From Stegostoma tigrinum (taxonomy: Eukaryota), in NCBI RefSeq assembly GCF_030684315.1, contig NC_081359.1:92536838-92600837 (forward strand): 64,000 bases of DNA, read 5' to 3'. The position numbers were made by a program, and so were the translations under genes. Numbering within the stretch: position 1 is the first letter of the stretch; each line of letters starts with the position of its first letter. Below are positions 4,443 through 53,755 of this stretch, one piece after another. Below the pieces are notes generated by a model. It was not told the DNA's origin. It worked only from the letters and a program-made list of their open reading frames with translations, and ran no database searches.

Positions 4443-4653
4443 AGATAATGGGAACTGCAGATGCTGGAGAATCCGAGATAACAAAGTGCGGAGCTGGATG
4501 AACACAGCAGGCCAAGCAGCATCTTAGGCGCACAAAAGCTGATGTTTCGGGCCTAGACCCTTATTCAGAGGGCCTAGGCCCGAAACGTCAGCTTTTGTGC
4601 GCCTAAGATGCTGCTTGGCCTGCTGTGTTCATCCAGCTCCACACTTTGTTGTC
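4443..4653. mobile_element. Fold-back non-autonomous PLE-derived element (family A) with 16-bp TSD
   Basis: About 85-bp inverted arms (4477-4561 and 4569-4653); TSD tcaatgtttatatttg at 4427-4442 and 4654-4669. Confidence 0.85.
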
Positions 4654-4948
4654 TCAATGTTTATATTTGTATTTGTTGTGCTTTGTTTATTTGTGATATG
4701 TTGGGATTATATCATCCTGGAGGCTAGGCTATGAACATTGCACACAATCTAATATCAGTTGTCTCTCAAAATTGATGCTTACACATTTTCTCGCAGGAAT
4801 CATCGGATAACAAAGTGAAGTGGGGTGGCTAGCAACTTCACTACTGTTCCTATTCCATAAGGCAAAGGAGACCCTCTTTTCACTCCAATTAAAATTAGCT
4901 ACCTCAGCATAGATGGGGAATTAAGCCAGTAGCATTCTGGGTTAAGAT

Positions 4949-26729: not shown

Positions 26730-27464
26730 TTATCGTTCCTGTGTAAAATGCAGGATAATTGGGTTACTTGAAACAGAAGGAATAGAATTAAGGAAGAATC
26801 CACCGTTGACTGCTATTTTTATAACTTGCTGGATAAACATATCCAGGCTTTGGATTTGCCGATGAGATGGTGAAGCATACAGGCTTTTCCAATTCTCCAT
26901 TATATACTGTTTTTCTAAGCTAGTTCTGCCACTTTGAACCCATTCTAGTGGAATGAATTTCAAATCTTCCAGATCACTGTCGACAGATAAATTGTCACCT
27001 TTGAAGATATAGTAGAATTTGGAATTGAGAAGATTCAACAAGGCACAAGATGTAGAAAATACTTGAACATTAACAAGTTTTACAGTATAGGAGCCAACAT
27101 TATGTGACTGTGAGTCATGAAAGATGTTAAGCACTGCATTGTTTTTTATTTGTATAACTGGGGACTTGATGGTCTGCAAAGCCTGCAGCAGAGGTTGGAT
27201 CTGGAAAAAATCAGCTTCTCTGCTCAGAAGATCCAGCTCTCGGAAATCAGCTGGAAGGTCCAAATGCGATGTTCGAAGGAAATTAAGGATGTGTCGAAAC
27301 ATTTTTCCATCTCTGTCTATGAAGTAATTTCCTTGCTGATCCTTACTGGTCGGAAGATCCCCAATAAACAGTGAACCAAGCATCGATTCTGGATAGCGAG
27401 TTAAAGTCATGAGGGAAGTGGTGTATAACATTCCTCCTACATTCAGTGTTATTGGTTCCGACAT
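26730..27464 (-). CDS. KCTD21: BTB/POZ (T1-type) domain protein KCTD21, single coding exon, 244 aa
   Basis: MSEPITLNVGG...FIDRDGKMFRHILNFLRTSHLDLP...READFFQIQPL is a KCTD BTB domain; C-terminal FSTSC and KIAVNGGF segments resemble KCTD21; adjacent to ALG8 as in mammals; acceptor ttacag at 27487-27492 and accATG context. Confidence 0.93.
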   Translation of the reverse strand: MSEPITLNVGGMLYTTSLMTLTRYPESMLGSLFIGDLPTSKDQQGNYFIDRDGKMFRHILNFLRTSHLDLPADFRELDLLSREADFFQIQPLLQALQTIKSPVIQIKNNAVLNIFHDSQSHNVGSYTVKLVNVQVFSTSCALLNLLNSKFYYIFKGDNLSVDSDLEDLKFIPLEWVQSGRTSLEKQYIMENWKSLYASPSHRQIQSLDMFIQQVIKIAVNGGFFLNSIPSVSSNPIILHFTQER

Positions 27465-28059
27465 GGTGAAATCCTGAACTTAAACCCTGTAAGTAAAATA
27501 AAGAGTATAATATGGAATCTTGTAAAGAAACAGCATCGTTCAAAAATCATCTATTCCATCCTGGCAACAATAATCCGGAATCATGTAAAGCAACAAAAAA
27601 AAAAATCAGGAGAAGGCCATTAAGGCTCTTAAGCCTTTTATGTATTTTTTAAAAAAGAGTAATGATAGTTATTAGCTGTGAAACCAAAGACTCCTTGTTA
27701 TGTTACGGATTAATTACCTAAAGCGTGGTGAGCTTCAGCACTAAACACTCATTATGAAGGCAGCATGACTTTCTGTTTCCCTTTTTGGTATTTAAGGGAT
27801 ACTACTACCATTTAGTACCTAATTCAGAACAATTTTGTGCTGCAAGTCCTTCTTGCTGTCAAGTGGTGAGAGAATTACTGAGGTTTCATTGAGCTTTCAC
27901 TCATCATCTACCAGAGCTGGACTCATCAGTTAGTACGAAGCAGGGCAAACCCTTGGGCCTTCCTGATCTTGATTTCTCACTGATACATACAGATAAAAAT
28001 CAGTGAACTACTGATAGAATGTAAACCTTTTTTTAAAAAAAAACTTGATCCTACAGAGT

Positions 28060-29909: not shown

Positions 29910-31310
29910 AATCATTCATGGCATCTTGATGTCACCAGATGGGCTAGCATTTATTGCCCATCCCTTATTGCACTGGAACTAAATGACTTCTAGGCCTATG
30001 AGGGATGGTTAAGAATAAACCACATTGTTATGGGTCTGGAATCACACATAGGCCAAACTAAGCAAGGATGGCAGATTTCCTTCCCTACAACATATTAGTG
30101 AATGAGATGGGTATCAGACTGTTTCCTGGGATGCCAAACTGATTTATGATGAGAGACTAGATTGGTTAGGATTGCATTCACTGGGTTTTAGAAGAACGGG
30201 GGAGGGGGATGGGGTAGTGGGGGAAGGTCATAGAAACCTATAAAGTTCTAAAAAGAAAAACCGAAAGAACTGCGGATGCTGTAAATCAGGAACAAAAACA
30301 AGTTGCTGGAAAAGCTCAGCAGGTCTGGCAGCATCTGTGAAGAAGAAAACAGAGTTAACATTTTGGGTCCAGTAACCCTTCCTTAGAACAGTTTGGAGGA
30401 AGGGTCACTGGACCAGAAATGTTAACTCTGTTTTCTCCTTCACAGATGCTGCCAAACCTGCTGAGCTTTTCCCGCAACTTGTTTTTGTTCCCAAGTTCTA
30501 AAAAGGTCTAAACAGAGTAAACACAGTGTGGAGCTGGAGGAACACTCCACCCAGTCAGGCAGCATCAGAGGAACAAGAAAGTCGATGTTTTGGGTTGGGA
30601 CCCTTCATCATGAGTCTTCAACCATATATTGAAAAAAAAAGTTACTACAGCTACATCTCCTTTCTCAGTATGAGCCTACGCAGCTGGCTCATACCCTGTG
30701 GACTCCAGGCAACATTCAGACCAGCCCAGAGTTCTGATGAAGGGTTCTGACCTGAAATATCGATTTTCCTTTTCCTCTGATGCTGCCTGACCTGTTGTGT
30801 TCCTCCAGTTCCACACTGTATTGACTCTGACTGCAGCACCTGCACGTCTTGTTTACAGGGTAGACAGGAAGGATGTTCCTGATGATCAGGGAGTCCGGAA
30901 CCAGGAATCAAAGTCTATGGATATGGGACCATTTTGGGCTGAGATGAAATTTCTTCAACTAGAGAGTGGCGAGCCTGTTGAACACTAAGGTACGGAAAGT
31001 GGTTGAGGCCAAAAATAAAACAAAAATCAAAAAAGGAGTTGGGTAAAGAGATCACAGGGTATGTGCAGGAAGTGGGAACAAAGTACTGAGTTAGATGATT
31101 AGCCCTGAAGGGCCAAATGGCCTACTATTTTCTATTAACAACAATCAACATATGCTTGTCATTACTCTAGCTTTTAATTTCAGATTTTTATTGAACTCAA
31201 ATTTCACTATTTTTCATGGTGGGATTTGTAGCCATTTCCTCAGAGCATAAGTCTGGGCTTCTGCATTAATAATCCAGTTACATTACTAGTACATCTCCCC
31301 ATTAAATCTG
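29910..31310. mobile_element. Nested cluster: minus-strand SINE split by a plus-strand CR1 3' fragment (about 30115-31135), itself hit by two PLE fold-back elements (30256-30491 family B; about 30523-30850 family A)
   Basis: SINE halves at 29910-30115 and 31135-31310 match the reverse complement of 55390-55725; TSD aagttctaaaaag at 30243-30255 and 30493-30505. Confidence 0.75.
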
Positions 31311-31808: not shown

Positions 31809-32957
31809 TTACATAATTGCCATAACTTGCTCACATAGTGCATTCCATTTGGTACACAGTTCATTGTCTTGGGAACAAATCCTTAAATGGGCACTTGCCA
31901 AAATCAGTGTTTCAGTTGGGCAAAACTTGTTGCCAATGAGGTCTGAAGCTAACTGATCACACATTGAGGATGGTAGCCAATCAGAAAATATTTTTATATT
32001 GCAGCTTTCAATTCTGCCATGATTGATGGTCATGTTCAATTCAACTTCTGCCCCAGGTAAATTCGGGTCCATAGAGAAATAGTGGCTGATACTGAACTTG
32101 GGCGTTCTTCCATAGATCCAATCCCAGCTTTTAAGGTCCTCGGTAAATTTGCTAATCCCTGGTAGCAACAAATTGTCTTTCGGATCCACTAGCAGAATTT
32201 TGCTTTGACAGCCACGGCGCCTTGCGTACTCCACTGCAATAGCATCCATTAATAGATCACAAGTTAGAGTGGGATCCACATCACAGAGATTTTTCACAGT
32301 GGCAGGTATACTGGGGGTAGCGTTGGTTTTTAGACCTTGGTAGGGTGAGTGAAGGACAGAGGACAAAAGAAGCCTGTTAGAGTTGCACAGCAAGGTGCAA
32401 TGGTGATAAGCAGATGTCCTTCCAATCTTGGATGCAGTGCCTGAGATTTTAAAGGCTCCGTTGAGTAGCAGGTCACACCTGTCCGTGGCTAACACGTTCA
32501 GCTGAGGTCGGATCCTCTTCAGAGCAGAGATAACCAACTCCAAGTTGCCACGCCTGTCATACCTCTTCTTGGAGGTGAAGAAGGTCAGGTTGATGTTTCC
32601 CAGGTCGTGATACACCGTTCCTCCCCCACTCCTCCTCCGGCTCAGCTGAATGCCTCGGTCCCTCATGAGTTTCAGATTGCATTCCTGCCAGGGGTTCTGG
32701 TGACGACCGATGACCACGGTGGGGCAATTCCTCCAGAGCAGGAGTACATGCCGATCTCGGGACTGCACGTACTCGTGTAACCAGTCCTCCAGCGCCAGGT
32801 TCTCGTAAATATCAGTAGACATGGATTTGAGGAGCAAAGCGCCGCCGCCCCGGGACTCATCCAAAGCGGCCAGAGTGGTGTACCAGGCACGGGAGAGAGT
32901 TCTCCACACTGCACGGGTTCCAACATTCAGCAAGGGCATCCCGCCGCTGCAAAACAT
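31809..32957 (-). CDS. LIPT1: Mitochondrial lipoyltransferase 1, single coding exon, 382 aa
   Basis: NLALEDW...LWRNCPTVVIGRHQNPWQECN...RRRSGGGTVYHDLGNINLTFF, KISGTA, HHCTLL and WDWIYGRTPKF motifs; Arg-containing N-terminus resembling a presequence. Confidence 0.96.
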   Translation of the reverse strand: MFCSGGMPLLNVGTRAVWRTLSRAWYTTLAALDESRGGGALLLKSMSTDIYENLALEDWLHEYVQSRDRHVLLLWRNCPTVVIGRHQNPWQECNLKLMRDRGIQLSRRRSGGGTVYHDLGNINLTFFTSKKRYDRRGNLELVISALKRIRPQLNVLATDRCDLLLNGAFKISGTASKIGRTSAYHHCTLLCNSNRLLLSSVLHSPYQGLKTNATPSIPATVKNLCDVDPTLTCDLLMDAIAVEYARRRGCQSKILLVDPKDNLLLPGISKFTEDLKSWDWIYGRTPKFSISHYFSMDPNLPGAEVELNMTINHGRIESCNIKIFSDWLPSSMCDQLASDLIGNKFCPTETLILASAHLRICSQDNELCTKWNALCEQVMAIM

Positions 32958-32960
32958 AAC

Positions 32961-33920: not shown

Positions 33921-34095
33921 GTCTGAAAATAGAATTAATAGAAAATAGAACACTTATCCTCAAAGTTGGATACAGAGGCTGTAATTTTCTAAAAATCTTT
34001 GGATTCTAGAGTAGTACTGTAGGATTGGTAGATTGCCAATGTGACACCCTAATTCAAAAAGGAAGAGAGGCAAAAAGTAGCTTGTGAAACCAGAG

Positions 34096-35404
34096 CCTCC
34101 TGCAGTGCCCGACATGTCCATCCTGGGCCTCCTGCGGTGCCGACATGTCCACTCCGGGCCTCCTGCGGTGCCCGACATGTCCATCGTTGGCCTCCTGCAG
34201 TGCCCGATATGTCCATCGTTGGCCTCCTGCAGTGCCTGACATGTCCATCGTTGGCCTCCTGCAGTGCCTGACATGTCCATCCTGGGCCTCTTGCAGTGCC
34301 CGACATGTCCACCCCGGGCCTCCTGCGGTGCCCGACATGTCCATCGTTGGCCTCCTGCAGTGCCCGATATGTCCATCGTTGGCCTCCTGCAGTGCCTGAC
34401 ATGTCCATCGTTGGCCTCCTGCAGTGCCTGACATGTCCATCCTGGGCCTCTTGCAGTGCCCGACATGTCCACCCCGGGCCTCCTGCGGTGCCCGACATGT
34501 CCACCCCGGGCCTCCTGCGGTGCCCGACATGTCCATCGTTGGCCTCCTGCAGTGCCCGACATGTCCATCCTGGGCCTCTTGCAGTGCCCGACATGTCCAC
34601 CCCGGGCCTCCTGCAGTGCCCGACATGTCCACCCCGGGCCTCCTGCGGTGCCCGACATGTCCATCGTTGGCCTCCTGCAGTGCCCGACATGTCCATCCTG
34701 GGCCTCTTGCAGTGCCCGACATGTCCACCCCGGGCCTCCTGCGGTGCCGACATGTCCATCGTTGGCCTCCTGCGGTGCCCGACATGTCCATCGTTGGCCT
34801 CCTGCAGTGCCCGACATGTCCACCCCGGGCCTCCTGCAGTGCCCGACATGTCCACCCCGGGCCTCCAGCAGTGCCTGACATGTCCATCGTTGGCCTCCAG
34901 CAGTGCCCGACATGTCCATCCCGGGCCTCTTGCAGTGCCCGACATGTCCATCCTGGGCCTCTTGCAGTGCCCGACATGTCCACCCCGGGCCTCCTGCAGT
35001 GCCCGACATGTCCACCCCGGGCCTCCTGCGGTGCCCGACATGTCCATCGTTGGCCTCCTGCAGTGCCCGACATGTCCATCCTGGGCCTCTTGCAGTGCCC
35101 GACATGTCCACCCCGGGCCTCCTGCGGTGCCGACATGTCCATCGTTGGCCTCCTGCGGTGCCCGACATGTCCATCGTTGGCCTCCTGCAGTGCCCGACAT
35201 GTCCACCCCGGGCCTCCTGCAGTGCCCGACATGTCCACCCCGGGCCTCCAGCAGTGCCTGACATGTCCATCGTTGGCCTCCAGCAGTGCCCGACATGTCC
35301 ATCCCGGGCCTCTTGCAGTGCCCGACATGTCCGTCCCGGGCCTCTTGCAGTGCCCGACATGTCCGTCCCGGGCCTCCTGCAGTGCCCTACATGGCCATCC
35401 TGGG
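34096..35404. repeat. 32-bp minisatellite, 41 units, with higher-order repeats
   Basis: Unit cctcctgcagtgcccgacatgtcc plus an 8-nt variable end (atcctggg, accccggg, atcgttgg, atcccggg, gtcccggg, actccggg); three units are 31 bp. Confidence 0.97.
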
Positions 35405-35975
35405 CCTCCTGCAGTGCCACAACGATGCCATCTGAAGGTTGCAGGAACAGCAACTTGTATTCTGCTTGGGAACCCTGCAGCCCAATGGTATCGATGTGGA
35501 TTTCACAAACTTCTAAATCTCCCCTCCCCCTACCGCATCCCAAAACACGCCCACCTCCTCCCCGCCTCCCTAACCTGTTCTTCCTCTCACCTATCCCCTC
35601 TTCCTACCTCAAGCCGCACCCCCATTTCCTACCCACTAACCTCATGCCGCCCCCTTGACCTGCCCGTCCTCCCTGGACTGACCTATCTCCTCCCTACCTT
35701 CCCACCGACACTCACCTTTACTGGCTCCATCCCCACCTCTTTAACTTGTCTGTCTCCTCTCCACCTATCTCCTCCTCTATCCATCTTCGATCTGCCTAGC
35801 CCTCTCTCCCTATTTATTTCAGAACCCTCTTCCCCTCCCCCATTTCTAACGAAGGGTCTAGGCTCAAAATGTCAGCTTTCCTGGTCCTAAGATGCTGCTT
35901 GGCCTGCTGTGTTCATCCAGCTTCACACCTTGTTATCTTGGATTCTCCAGCATCTGCAGTTCCTATTATCTCTGA
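35405..35975 (+). mobile_element. 5'-truncated Penelope-like element (family A): GIY-YIG C-terminus, 3' UTR and pseudo-LTR
   Basis: LLQCHNDAI*RLQEQQLVFCLGTLQPNGIDVDFTNF, homologous to 52270-52400 and 53985-54095; ends in the family A terminus. Confidence 0.88.
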
Positions 35976-36089: not shown

Positions 36090-36315
36090 CAGAGATAGTA
36101 GGAACTGCAGATGCTGGACAATCTGAGATAACAAGGTGTGGAGCTGGATGAACACAGCAGGCCAAGCAGCATCAGAGGAGCAGGAAAGCTGATGTTTCGG
36201 GCCTAGACCCTTCTGCAGAATTCTGAAGAAGGGTCTAGGCCTGAAGTGTCTGTCTTCCTGCTCCTCTGATGCTGCTTGGCCTGCTGTGTTCATCCAGCTC
36301 TACAACTTGTTATCA
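36090..36315. mobile_element. Fold-back PLE family A element
   Basis: About 90-bp inverted arms centred on gaattc near 36220; ggtaaacac occurs on both sides. Confidence 0.85.
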
Positions 36316-36332
36316 GGTAAACACTCCTGATT

Positions 36333-37531
36333 TAGAACATAGAACATAGAACATAGAACAGTACAGCACAGAACAGGCCCTTCAGCCCACAATGTTGTGC
36401 CGACCATTGATCCTCATGGATGCACCCTCAAATTTCTGTGACCATATGCATGTCCAGCAGTCTCTTAAATGACCCCAATGACCTTGCTTCCACAACTGCT
36501 GCTGGCAACGCATTCCATGCTCTCACAACTCTCTGCGTAAAGAACCTGCCTCTGACATCCCCTCTATACTTTCCACCAACCAGCTTAAAACTATGACCCC
36601 TCGTGCTAGCCATTTCTGCCCTGGGAAATAGTCTCTGGCTATCGACTCTATCTATGCCTCTCATTATCTTGTATACCTCAATTAGGTCCCCTCTCCTCCT
36701 CCTTTTCTCCAATGAAAAGAGACCGAGCTCAGTCAACCTCTCTTCATAAGATAAGCCCTCCAGTCCAGGCAGCATCCTGGTAAACCTCCTCTGAACCCTC
36801 TCCAAAGCATCCACATCTTTCCTATAATAGGGCGCCCAGAACTGGACGCAGTATTCCAAGTGCGGTCTAACCAAAGTTTTATAGAGCTGCAACAAGATCT
36901 CACGACTCTTAAACTCAATCCCCCTGTTAATGAAAGCCAAAACACCATATGCTTTCTTAACAACCCTGTCCACTTGGGTGGCCATTTTAAGGGATCTATG
37001 TATCTGCACACCAAGATCCCTCTGTTCCTCCACGCTGCCAAGAATCCTATCCTTAATCCTGTACTCAGCTTTCAAATTCGACCTTCCAAAATGCATCACC
37101 TCGCATTTATCCAGGTTGAACTCCATCTGCCACCTCTCAGCCCATCTCTGCATCCTGTCAATGTCCCGCTGCAGCCTACAACAGCCCTCTACACTGTCAA
37201 CGACACCTCCGACCTTTGTGTCGTCTGCAAACTTGCTGACCCATCCTTCAATTCCCTCGTCCAAGTCATTAATAAAAATTACAAACAGTAGAGGCCCAAG
37301 GACAGAGCCCTGTGGAACCCCACTCACCACTGACTTCCAGGCAGAATATTTTCCTTCTACTACCACTCGCTGTCTTCTGTTGGCCAGCCAATTCTGTATC
37401 CAAGCAGCTAAATTCCCCTGTATCCCATTCCTCCTGACCTTCTGAATGAGCCTTCCATGGGGAACCTTATCAAATGCCTTACTGAAGTCCATATACACCA
37501 CATCCACAGCTTGACCCTCATCAACCTTTCT
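36333..37531 (-). mobile_element. Young 5'-truncated CR1 LINE with an uninterrupted 359-codon RT/C-terminal frame
   Basis: YMDFSKAFDKVPH, SGVPQGSVLGPLLF, FADD and LVRPHLEYCVQFW with no stops; 3' tail of 7-mer (TAGAACA)x4 at 36333-36360. Confidence 0.95.
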
Positions 37532-47242: not shown

Positions 47243-47456
47243 GATAACAGTGTGGAGCTGGATGAACACAGCAGGCCAAGCAGCATCTTAGGAGCACAAA
47301 AGCTGACATTTCGGGCCTAGACCCTTCATCTGATGGAGGGTCTAGGCCCAAAACGTCAGCTTTTGTGCTCCTAAGATGCTGCTTGGCCTGCTGTGTTCAT
47401 CCAGCTCCACACTTTGTTATCTTGGATTCTCCAGCATCTGCAGTTCCCATTATCTC
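47243..47456. mobile_element. Fold-back PLE family A element
   Basis: About 85-bp near-perfect inverted arms centred near 47330. Confidence 0.88.
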
Positions 47457-49669: not shown

Positions 49670-52600
49670 AAATAGGAACAGGGATAGGCCATTCTGCCCT
49701 TCAAGCCTGCTCTAATTAATTTAATTAGTTTAATTTGGTGTCATGTTTGGCACAACATCCAACTTAGTAGCCTGTTCCTGGTTTCTACCCATATCCTTTG
49801 TTTCCTTTAGCCTTGAGTGATACATCCAACTCTTTGAAATCACACAATATTTTGGCCTTGACTGCTTTCTGTGGTAGTAAGTTCCACAGGTTCACCACTC
49901 TTTGGGAAAGAACTTTCTCCCTGTGTCAGTCCTAAATGATTTATCTTGGTTCCTAGACTGTGACCTCTTGGTATGGACTCCCTTATACTACTCATCCAGC
50001 ATTGTTGTATTCTACTCACAGCTCAACTCCTCACCAGCTTTGAGTCATCTGCAAATTTGGAGATTTTACATCAAGAACTTACTTCCTGCATCTGCCATGT
50101 CCAATCTGTTAGAATTTTATAGGTTTTAATAAGATCCCTCCTCATTCATCTGAACTGCAGGGAATATAATCCTAACCAATTCAATCTCTCCTCATACCTA
50201 AGTCCTGCCATCTCAGGAATCAGACTGGTAAATTTTTGCTGCATTCCCACCAGAGCAAAAACATCCTTTCTCAGATAAGTAGACCGCAACTACACACAAT
50301 ATTTCAGGTGTATAATTACAGCAAGACATCCCTGCTCCTGTACTCAAAACCTATTGCTATGAAGGATGACATACCATTTGCTTATTTTACCATCTGCTGC
50401 ACCTATATGATTCAGTCACTGATGAACAAGAACACCCAAGTCTCATGCACGTTCTCCTCTTTCAATTTATCACAATTTCAGTAGTAATCTGCCCTCTTGT
50501 TTTTGCTACTAAAGTAGATTACCTCAGATTTATACACCTTATGCTACATCTGCAATTTATTTGTCCACTCACTCAGCTTGTCCAATTCATACTGAAGCAT
50601 CTTCACACCCTCCTTGCAGGTCACCCACCTGCCTGCTTTGTGTCATCTGTGAATTTGGAGATATTACATTTAGTTTCCTTATCTAAATCATTTGTATATA
50701 TTATGAAATGCTGGGGTCCTAATACTGATCCTTGCAATACCCCACAAGTTGCTTTCTGCCATTTGGAAAAAAAACACTCATTTGTTCTAACTTCTTCAAG
50801 GTTTTATCATTCATAACCACATCACCTCAGGTGACGTCTCACCCACAGCCTCCAACCTCATCGCTTCCCAACTCTGCACTGCCCATTTCTATCTCCTTCC
50901 CAAAATCCACAAACCTGACTCCCCCAGCCGACCCATTGTCTCTGCCTGCTCCTGCTCCACTAAACTCATCTCCGCTTACCTTGACTCGGTTTTTCCCCCG
51001 GTCCAGGAATTCCCCACTTGTGTCTGGGACACCACCCCATGCCCTCCACCTCCTCCAAGACTTCTATTTCCCTGCCCCTAATACTTCATCTTCACTATGG
51101 ACATCCAATCCCTGCACACTTGTCTCCCCCACATGGATGGCCTAAAAGCCCTCCACTTCTTCGTCTCCTGCAGGCCCAACCAATCCCCCTCTATCAACAC
51201 CCTCATCTGCTTAACAGAACTTGTCCTTACCCTTAACAATTGCTCCTTTAACTCCTCCTACTTTCTACAGTCTAAGGGAGTGACCACCCACACCTGCATG
51301 GGCTCAAGCTATGCCTGCCTCTTCATAGAATACTTGGAACAGTCCCTTTCCTGCTATTATACTGGCACTATCCCTCATCTCTTCCTCCGCTACATTGATG
51401 ACTGTATCGGTGCTGCCTCATGCTCCCACGAGGAGCTTGAACAGTTCATCAAATTTACTAACACCTTTCACCCCAACCTCAAATTCACTTGGACCATCTC
51501 CAATACCTCCCTCTCCTTCCTGGACCTCTCCATCTCCAGTGACCACTTCGAAACTGACATCTATTTCAAACCCACTGACTCCCACAGCTACCTGGACTAC
51601 ACCTCCTCTCACCCACCCTCCTGCAAGAATGTGATCCTCTATTCCCAATTCCTCTGCCTCTGGTGTGTCTGCTCCCAAGATGGGATGTTCCACTCCCGCA
51701 CATCCCAGATGTCCTCCTATTTCAAGGACTGTAAGAACCCCCTTTGGTGATCGAAAATGCACTCAACTGTATCTCCTTCATTTCCTACACTTCTGCCCTC
51801 TCATTCCCTCCACCCAACAAAAATAAAGCCAGAATCCCCCTTGTCCTCACATATCACCCCACCAACCTCTACATCCAATGTAGCATCCTCTGCCACTCCC
51901 GCCATCTACAATCTGACTTCACAACCAAAGAGATAGTTTCTTCCCACCCCGACCTGCCTTTCGTAAGGACCACTCTCTCCACAACTGCCTCGTCTGCTCC
52001 ATGTTCCCCACTAGCCCCACCACACCCAGCATCTTTCCCTGCAGCCGCAGGACGTGCTACACCTGCCCTCTCACCTCCATTCAAGCACAAAACAAACCTT
52101 CCATATCAAACATGGGTTCACCTGCACATCCTTCAACTTGGTCTACTGTATCCACTGCTCCCGATGTGGCCTCCTCTACATCAGTGAGACCAAGCGTAGA
52201 TTCGTAGGCCGTTTCATAGAGCATCTGCGCTCTGTATGAGAAAACAACAACACCTTCCAGTCACCCCTGGGTGATGTCCATCCTGGGCCTCCTCCAGTGT
52301 CACAGTGACATCACCTGCAAACTGGAGGAGCAACACCTCATTCTGCCTCAGGAGCCTACGGCCAGATGGCCTAAACATGGAATTCACCAATTTTAACATC
52401 TCCCCACCCTTGACCTCATCCCGTGTCCAAGTCTCCCTCTCCTCCCCGCCTCCTTGACTTGACACAAACTGTCCATCTTCTCTCCCACCTACCTGCCCCT
52501 CCCTTCCCACTGATCAATCCCACCACTCCCTACCTGCACTCACCTATCACCATCCCAACTACGTTCCCCAGGCCCACCCCTCTTCTCTCTGTTTACTTCC

Positions 52601-53755
52601 AAGCTTCCTTCTCCCTCCCTATTTCTGAAGAAGGGTCCTGAATCAAAACATCAACTTTCCTGCTCCCCTGATGCTGCCTGGCCTGCTGTATTCCTCCTCA
52701 TTTATTCTAACTTTTTTTTCCTTGTCTGCCAATCACTTTTCTATCCATCTTATTACACGATACCCAATCCTGTACACTTTAACCGTACACCCTGATCTCT
52801 TATTTGGGACTTTGTTGAAAGCCTTCTGAAAGTGCACATAAACCAAATGCATTGGCTCTACCTCATCAACTCTACCAGTTATATCTCAAAGAATTCCAGT
52901 AAATTTATCAAACAGGATTTCCTTTTTCTAAATCCATGCTGACTGTGTCTGATCCTACCACTGTTTTCCAGTACTTTGCTATTAAATCTTTCATAATGGA
53001 CTCTAGCATTTTCTCTACTGCCAATATCAGGCTGATTGCTCTGTAACTCCCAGGTTCCTCTTTTTCAACCTCGGTAAATAGAGGGGTTATATCAGCTACC
53101 CTACAATCTGTAGGAACTATTCTAGAGTCTATGGAATCTTGAAAGATGGCCAAAAATGCATCCATTACTTCTAGGGCTACTTCCTTAGATACTTTGGGAT
53201 ATAGATTATCAGGCCCTGGGGATTTATCAGCCTTCAATTTCCCCATTAATATTAATTTCCTTTGGTTCCTTCGTGTTCTCCCAACATTTCTGGTGAGTTA
53301 TTGTGTCCTCCTTTGTGAACATAGAACCAAAATAGGCATTTAGTTGGTTAGCCTTTTCTTTATTCTCCATTTTAATTTTCTGTTTCAGATTGTAAGGCAT
53401 CTACATTTGTCTTCACCCATCTTTTTTCCTTCCCATGACTATAGAAATATTTACAATCAGTTTTTATGTGCTCTCAAGTTACTCTCATACTCTATTTTCC
53501 CTTTGTAGATCAATTGCTTTGTTTTCCTTTGTGGAATTCTGAATTTCTCCCACTGTTCAGCTAGGTTGTTTCTTCTATGCCAATTTGGATGCCAGTTCCT
53601 TGGATCTAATACTATCTGTAATTTCCCTTGTAAGCCATGGTTTGGCCATCTTTCCCATTTTACTTCTGCGCCAGGCAGGAATAAACAATGATCACAGTTC
53701 ACCTATGCGATCTTTGAATGTTTGCCACTGCCTTTCCACCATTACCACTTCAAGT
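49670..53755 (-). mobile_element. Degraded CR1 LINE, host of the PLE at 50794-52696
   Basis: Minus strand KSPGPDNLYPKVSKEVA..IFQDSID..ADITPLF..YRAISL motifs; CR1 tail near 49670. Confidence 0.85.
50794..52696 (+). mobile_element. Penelope-like element (Neptune-like), 5'-truncated: RT, Cys linker, GIY-YIG and pseudo-LTR
   Basis: MDIQSLHT, LFLRYIDD, FHPNLKFT, YFKPTDSHSYL; FPCSRRTCYTCP; NLVYCIHCSRCGLLYISETKRRFVGRFIEH; 17-bp TSD ctcattt(g/a)ttctaactt at 50777-50793 and 52697-52713. Confidence 0.92.

Follow-up and report, generated by a model that had tools for sequence, protein, structure and literature searches.

The 32-bp minisatellite at 34095..35418 (+) of the window, the whole stretch of 64,000 nucleotides that was analysed, consists of coding sequence of the Penelope-like element (PLE) into which it runs. 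Judged from sequence comparison across the family, the seed of the array was very probably written during the insertion of the element. We propose, with a probability of about 0.58, that this seed arose by first-strand re-copying of a short terminal piece of the RNA, reached through homology-free jumping. Transposon-derived minisatellites and complex PLE junctions are already known. No prior description of short terminal PLE stutters was found in the freely accessible literature searched. No function is implied for the array, which is probably functionless.

The TRF program assigns the array a period of 32, 41.5 copies as assembled and 89% matches. This agrees with the 41 tandem units counted in an earlier note on this DNA, and the body of the element continues from 35388. 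The unit corresponds to a segment of the PLE coding for its GIY-YIG endonuclease, which surrounds the DMS codons and covers family positions -1 to +30. It had been read before as the element's own DMSILGLLQC-coding segment, present once at 52274, and the open frames of sister copies bear this out, with DMSI(L/M)GLLQC at this place. The single copy (52274..52305, +) lies in a more distant PLE copy at about 50800-52700, the RT (reverse transcriptase) region of which is a 222-aa open frame. The segment is single-copy in each of the 29 closest PLE copies, all of which reach further 5'.

The units are of 16 types, in the order ABCDEFGCDEFGGCFHGCFIJCHKLMFHGCFIJCHKLMNOP. Units 3-7 recur exactly as units 8-12 (34174..34493, +; 160-bp block, 190-nt exact run at lag 160), as had been noticed. 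The longer recurrence, first placed at about units 16-26, is refined here to units 15-26 = 27-38 (34558..35323, +; 12-unit block of 383 bp, 402-nt exact run at lag 383), with its marker units, one 31-bp unit and two CCAGCAG units, inside the block as described. The GATATG variant starts at 34206 and 34366 instead of 34201 and 34361. A third repeat comprises 4 units (lag 128, 127-nt exact run). The longest repeated block of 12 units compares with a maximum of 5 in 5000 shuffles of the unit labels. In a satellite with higher-order repeats a multi-unit block is iterated many times and nested, but here the 160-bp and 383-bp blocks are each present twice only, in adjacent copies. The two tiers of higher-order repeats that had been suggested are instead two neighbouring two-copy blocks without hierarchy. 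They are recent block duplications, which are explained by the later unequal exchange that the earlier note had invoked.

The copies of both blocks are 100% identical, as they would be if the long array or its exact blocks were an assembly artefact. This explanation can practically be dismissed: the units form 16 ordered types, the junction of flank and array is spanned by a short-read contig (perhaps of the source sample), and the family-wide pattern described below is independent of the focal locus, so that at most the copy number would be affected. At this junction the first unit is incomplete: the array opens 17 nt inside it, with its 3' half only (34095..34110, +), which meets the flank with zero shared bases and without a target-site duplication. 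The 3.2-Gb genome was searched for the tandem joint with a degenerate pattern, since no focal unit equals the consensus and the exact consensus gives 0 matches. All matches (20/20) were found at the focal locus, which rules out a dispersed 32-bp satellite family. In its unit of 10-100 bp cut from a transposable element, its single locus and its ordered variants, the array corresponds to a transposon-derived minisatellite. Near a PLE copy, at L025:1-339, about 10 units of 34 bp form a minisatellite unrelated to this one.

The focal element is a 5'-truncated PLE remnant of about 590 bp (35388..~35974, +) with the end of the endonuclease region, the 3' UTR, a decayed hammerhead-like motif and a tail. 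Its divergence from the majority of the 29 closest copies is 7.8%. Sister frames ending in the unit peptide resemble RVT_1 (E 2.4e-5, L101) and GIY-YIG (E 1.9e-4, L087), both just under the Pfam cut-offs, and the PLE frames of the window at 51082 and 60522 gave no Pfam match. The RT of sister copies is followed by a C-terminal GIY-YIG in one frame, the layout of endonuclease-bearing (EN+) PLEs, of which the focal copy retains the endonuclease end only. A 582-aa open frame from RT through endonuclease is found at L101:1-1746 (+), among the youngest long copies seen. A core pattern like that of a hammerhead occurs in 42/59 sister copies and is broken in the focal copy (35845..35880, +); the fold is not hammerhead-like. 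Rfam returned no hammerhead match, only microRNA hairpin models below cut-off on PLE palindromes. Near-perfect palindromes from short repeated element ends, several of the PLE family, are located at 36127-36314, 4475-4655, 47249-47413 and 30289-30491.

The optional PLE tail of 33-36 nt (35939..35974, + in the focal copy) is present in 25 and absent in 32 of 60 copies, with 3 unscored; the 25/57 scored copies that carry it, the focal copy among them, correspond to the 30-40-bp optional tail of EN+ PLEs. An inverted 5' arm, as in 5'-truncated copies of EN+ PLEs, is found on 16/57 unselected copies and on 44/63 duplication loci, with none at the focal locus. The family gives 25,830 exact matches to a 36-mer and 75,429 to a 14-mer. 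A CCHH-type motif can be recognized by eye in the translations (CxxC before the GIY-YIG-like stretch, EH/NH after it) when these are compared with the relevant part of PMC8557442. On such sequence features the family fits the descriptions of endonuclease-bearing PLEs in the portions of PMC8557442, PMC3846280 and PMC11167929 considered here.

The site of the focal insertion can be compared with contigs of a related species from two studies. These match from 35977 onward but have 607+ bases of other sequence upstream, where the window has the PLE end; a 20-mer taken from these bases does not occur in the 64-kb window. Because the related species has other sequence upstream of 35977, the focal insertion is lineage-specific. 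The upstream flank of the related species breaks at 34061-34062, inside an old repeat, and the empty site is not bridged. No target-site duplication beyond 3 nt was found at the focal insertion. The missing 600+ bp reflect either a target deletion at insertion, or a later trimming deletion, or the relative's own insertion, and the focal 5' edge may be secondary, through later deletion. With 607+ differing bases in the history of the site, the mid-unit phase at the focal locus is weaker evidence than the family statistics. The array is located about 1.1 kb upstream of an intact single-exon frame for a lipoyl protein ligase (31809-32960, -), perhaps in an intron or promoter region. We take the ligase to be LIPT1-like. 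An intact single-exon frame for a BTB/KCTD11-21 protein is found at 26730-27479 (-).

The family statistics come from a genome search for close recurrences of a 14-nt PLE motif, with spacings of 18-64 bp, carried out with motifs from three positions of the element. A duplication was called terminal where no PLE sequence of the same arm lies 5' of the repeat. Left out were L125 (a copy of L124), L130 (the mirror of L129), L186 (the L185 array), L194-L203 (the L193 event) and two motif-3 matches. After this merging of duplicates, 16/20, 47/50 and 17/19 duplications at motifs 1-3 are terminal, 80/89 in total, counts which include the focal locus and the atypical L083, where the repeat takes in flank. 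The earlier note had advised looking for tandem arrays at PLE 5' truncation ends, and they are clearly enriched there. Among unselected copies the 5' end is 35 nt or less from the motif in 1/30, 1/25 and 4/16 at motifs 1-3, the motif-3 null being weak, while for duplications the corresponding values are 15/19 at motif 1 (Fisher p 3.5e-8) and 48/50 at motif 2 (Fisher p 3e-16). The neighbour of the array in the 63 terminal cases at motifs 1-2 is an inverted partner arm in 44, flank in 15 and direct PLE sequence in 4. Direct terminal duplication occurs in 0/57 unselected copies, a sample with about 40 true ends (17 scans stopped at internal indels and 2 exhausted the locus); in one unselected copy, L034, the inverted arm carries a 30-bp repeat of 2.9 units. 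As a rough estimate, 1-3% of ends carry a terminal duplication.

The remaining duplications, 9/89, are internal. Three of their joints share 4-5 nt (L124, L179 and the L193 family), as slippage predicts, and six share 0-1. The L193-L203 loci, on small contigs (C104-C624), represent a single PLE insertion in which 41 bp are duplicated internally; its recurrence indicates that it sits in a large amplified repeat. L076 and L077 (C17) are different copies with an identical internal 27-bp duplication, perhaps from one source element.

A LINE family taken from the window, with an RVT_1 match, served as the single control family; it is presumably CR1-like. Its source is the fragment at 36333-37530 (-), which adjoins a PLE palindrome, contains an open frame of 383 aa and has (TAGAACA)4 as its end repeat. 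The two LINE motifs gave 0 duplications among 23,082 and 14,291 copies, where 20-23 would be expected at the PLE motif-2 rate. The density of 5' ends within 300 nt of the motif is similar in the two families, 14/40 for the LINE and 10/25 for the PLE.

The periods of the terminal repeats cluster. At motifs 1-2, 40/63 periods are 29-40 bp compared with 12.4 expected (detection-weighted), and only 1/63 is 18-28 bp compared with 5.3; at motif 3 the 29-40-bp range holds 11/17, giving 51/80 for all motifs. This period equals the tail length of the family (33-36 nt), an agreement which may be a coincidence. A tail of 30-40 nt is linked in the account of PMC11167929, as far as it is used here, to the distance between two start sites of the RT. 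The windows copied as units differ between loci and lie at three places about 770 nt apart. At motif 2, 30/47 unit starts are located in the 5-nt window -94 to -90, after a G-run, a cluster partly shaped by the search design; it suggests that the RNA breaks, or the enzyme stalls, preferentially there.

Microhomology at the joints is 0-1 nt in 48/63 cases at motifs 1-2, with a mean of 1.0 compared with 0.70-0.74 by chance, and in 13/17 at motif 3. This absence of microhomology argues against slippage and against realignment of the telomerase type, and it fits homology-free template jumping. Telomerase copies one short RNA window repeatedly and realigns by base-pairing. If the PLE enzyme added repeats in this manner, with its cDNA end realigned on the RNA by base-pairing, the repeats should derive from a terminal template window, as they do, and PLE RTs and telomerase RTs share their most recent ancestor according to the part of PMC8557442 considered. 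It is nevertheless a most improbable explanation, since joint microhomology is at chance level and the window differs at every locus, so that neither base-paired realignment nor a fixed, defined template element is apparent. The reiterative re-copying of a short template window that the earlier note proposed is thus partly supported, in that the seed is terminal and very probably of insertion age, while its telomerase-like character, taken mechanistically, is not supported.

The phase of the arrays is also informative. The 5'-most piece is located 0-8 nt from the unit start in 36/63 cases; most others begin with the 3' part of a unit, like the focal locus, and in 3-4 loci (L084, L172, L079, L168) the first piece lies upstream of the unit start. 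A simply truncated copy does not hold the bases needed for this, and the observed phase is therefore beyond later slippage. Joint length varies within 5/21 arrays and in L184, L185 and L188 at motif 3, some of these in short base runs. The focal array has the traits of the terminal class: period 32, zero microhomology and a unit start at -1, the last also seen in L052 and L079.

The age of the units was assessed from the divergence of the copies that carry them. Arrays of at least 3 units are found in 7/29 copies under 2%, 5/15 at 2-5% and 3/5 above 5%, and arrays of 3-5 units occur in copies only 0-1.5% diverged. Copy number and divergence have a rho of 0.015 (p 0.92), with means of 2.49, 2.69 and 3.16 across rising divergence classes, a slight increase. 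Arrays of 3-6 units contain 36 private and 4 shared mutations, a count that omits five L143 events (an offset artefact), where 10.4 shared ones would be expected had a two-unit seed grown gradually (P 0.018). These sequence comparisons support a date around insertion for the multi-unit arrays, and the young arrays and private mutations lend indirect support to the addition of several copies in a single encounter with the enzyme. Shared mutations are present in L053 and L165, and some later growth occurs in arrays of this kind. The focal units differ by 7.3% from the family majority and by 10.8% from one another, compared with 7.8% for the body, and no derived base is found in more than 18/41 units. 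Several lineages of focal units go back to about the time of insertion, and the exact blocks are recent. The 41-unit length is likely a later expansion.

It might be argued that one slip at insertion produced a two-copy seed, and that slippage or unequal exchange without reiteration added all other units later. Only two motif copies are present in 41/63 terminal cases, later growth at the focal locus is proven by its exact blocks, and the slight rise of copy number with age would follow. However, this reading is improbable in view of the 3-5 units of the youngest copies, the dominance of private mutations, the joints that differ inside arrays and the lack of a derived base common to all focal units. 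An origin entirely after insertion is still less probable. A longer PLE at the focal locus would have carried a 32-bp duplication in its interior, which expanded, and a later deletion would have taken the upstream element and flank, in keeping with the 600+ bp missing relative to the related species, the lack of a target-site duplication and the existence of internal duplications. The internal cases are, however, a tenth of events, the focal traits are those of the terminal class, and the unit lineages and the body are of about equal age. Post-insertion slippage, put forward earlier as the simpler alternative, is inadequate in position, phase, joints and age.

First-strand re-copying would proceed as follows. 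On arriving at the 5' break of its PLE RNA, the RT would jump, without base-pairing, onto a 30-40-nt scrap, the terminal piece of the same RNA, at the 3' end of this piece. Copying this scrap over and over would give the first few units, and at the focal locus the last round may have stopped mid-unit. Such a course would require a short terminal RNA fragment, left for example by host RNase H behind the enzyme, and a jump presumably made by the PLE enzyme rather than by a host polymerase. A seed of at least about three unit lineages probably grew afterwards, through slippage or unequal exchange, into the present 41.5 units, with the 160-bp and 383-bp blocks as the latest expansion steps. Growth of arrays by unequal exchange is established minisatellite behaviour in the portion of PMC3389668 considered.

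Alternatively, synthesis of the second strand could start on the free cDNA 3' end, run 30-40 nt, fall off and restart, by the PLE or a host repair polymerase and mostly while two facing cDNAs are joined. The terminal position, the inverted arm beside 44/63 arrays and the nearly complete first units of 36/63 would be expected from such restarts. L120, with a fixed start and ends at -79, -59, -58 and -58, and L185, also with a fixed start and variable end, resemble repeated second-strand starts and speak against first-strand jumping. We nevertheless consider this route doubtful. In 16/21 multi-unit arrays the period is constant, with one end point kept. Many arrays (the focal one, L085, L119, L142, L149, L161, L175, L183 and L188) open with a 3' unit part ending at the same joint, which corresponds to copying in the cDNA direction with a random stop. 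Polymerase theta requires microhomology and is disfavoured by its absence, and the LINE, under the same host repair, shows no duplications. First-strand re-copying is favoured because both ends of the unit are constant in most arrays, which break off at a random phase when read in the cDNA direction. The rarity of direct cases (0/57), the six non-terminal joints with 0-1 nt and the first pieces located upstream of the unit start were counted against it.

It is important to note that the family-wide signature (terminal, 29-40 bp, homology-free, of insertion age and absent in a LINE) can be counted, and that it constrains the questions of PLE integration and of minisatellite origin. According to the relevant part of PMC11167929, the later stages of PLE integration still await validation. 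The signature is open to direct test in the existing in vitro Poseidon assay. A wider proposal is made only tentatively: the Penelope RT, sister to that of telomerase, might have an intrinsic capacity for repeat addition. Where a broken template ends, it would use the last 30-40 nt of its RNA several times over, with no realignment by base-pairing, and the enzyme geometry that spaces its two start sites and makes the 30-40-nt tail would also determine the repeat length. Minisatellites would then be seeded in a few per cent of insertions, and the activity could be a plausible ancestral form of the reiterative copying of telomerase.

Several known systems can be compared with the PLE arrays. Like the process proposed here, telomerase, a related enzyme, copies a single short stretch of RNA many times, but the PLE repeats have no fixed template element, realignment homology or chromosome-end location. 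Template jumping by the R2 reverse transcriptase needs no homology. Such jumping is documented for R2 proteins in the text considered of PMC11371274, where the cDNA continues from the template end to another 3' end and produces head-to-tail copies, as in the PLE arrays; R2, however, jumps to other RNAs or target DNA, whereas the PLE would re-use one short terminal window with a floor near 29 nt. PMC2912911 cites Bibillo and Eickbush (2002/2004) on R2 template jumping. The duplications at R1/R2 5' junctions described in part of PMC2718515 are target DNA, unlike the terminal repeats of the PLE.

The EN+ PLEs, in the portions of PMC8557442, PMC3846280 and PMC11167929 considered, share with the present family the RT and C-terminal GIY-YIG, frequent 5' truncation, the inverted 5' arm, the optional tail and a candidate hammerhead-like core in the 3' region. 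What these portions describe are pseudo-LTR tandems, palindromes and tails; they contain no account of a truncated end at which the final 30-40 coding bases form short repeats, head to tail. Non-LTR retrozymes also form tandem arrays of PLE sequence, for which rolling-circle copying is proposed (bioRxiv 10.64898/2026.07.22.740005, in part). Their units are longer and their dispersed arrays carry a hammerhead in each unit, whereas the focal unit is coding, ribozyme-free and confined to one locus.

Transposon-derived minisatellites share with the focal array a unit from a mobile element, later local expansion and ordered variants (Ahmed and Liang 2012, PMC3389668; PMC9659126; both in part). In the portion of PMC3389668 considered, known initiation models cover about 6% of such minisatellites, the start of most is unexplained, and triggering during retrotransposition is only suggested. 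The PLE arrays differ from them in that the position, size and age of the seed point to a specific route at the time of insertion.
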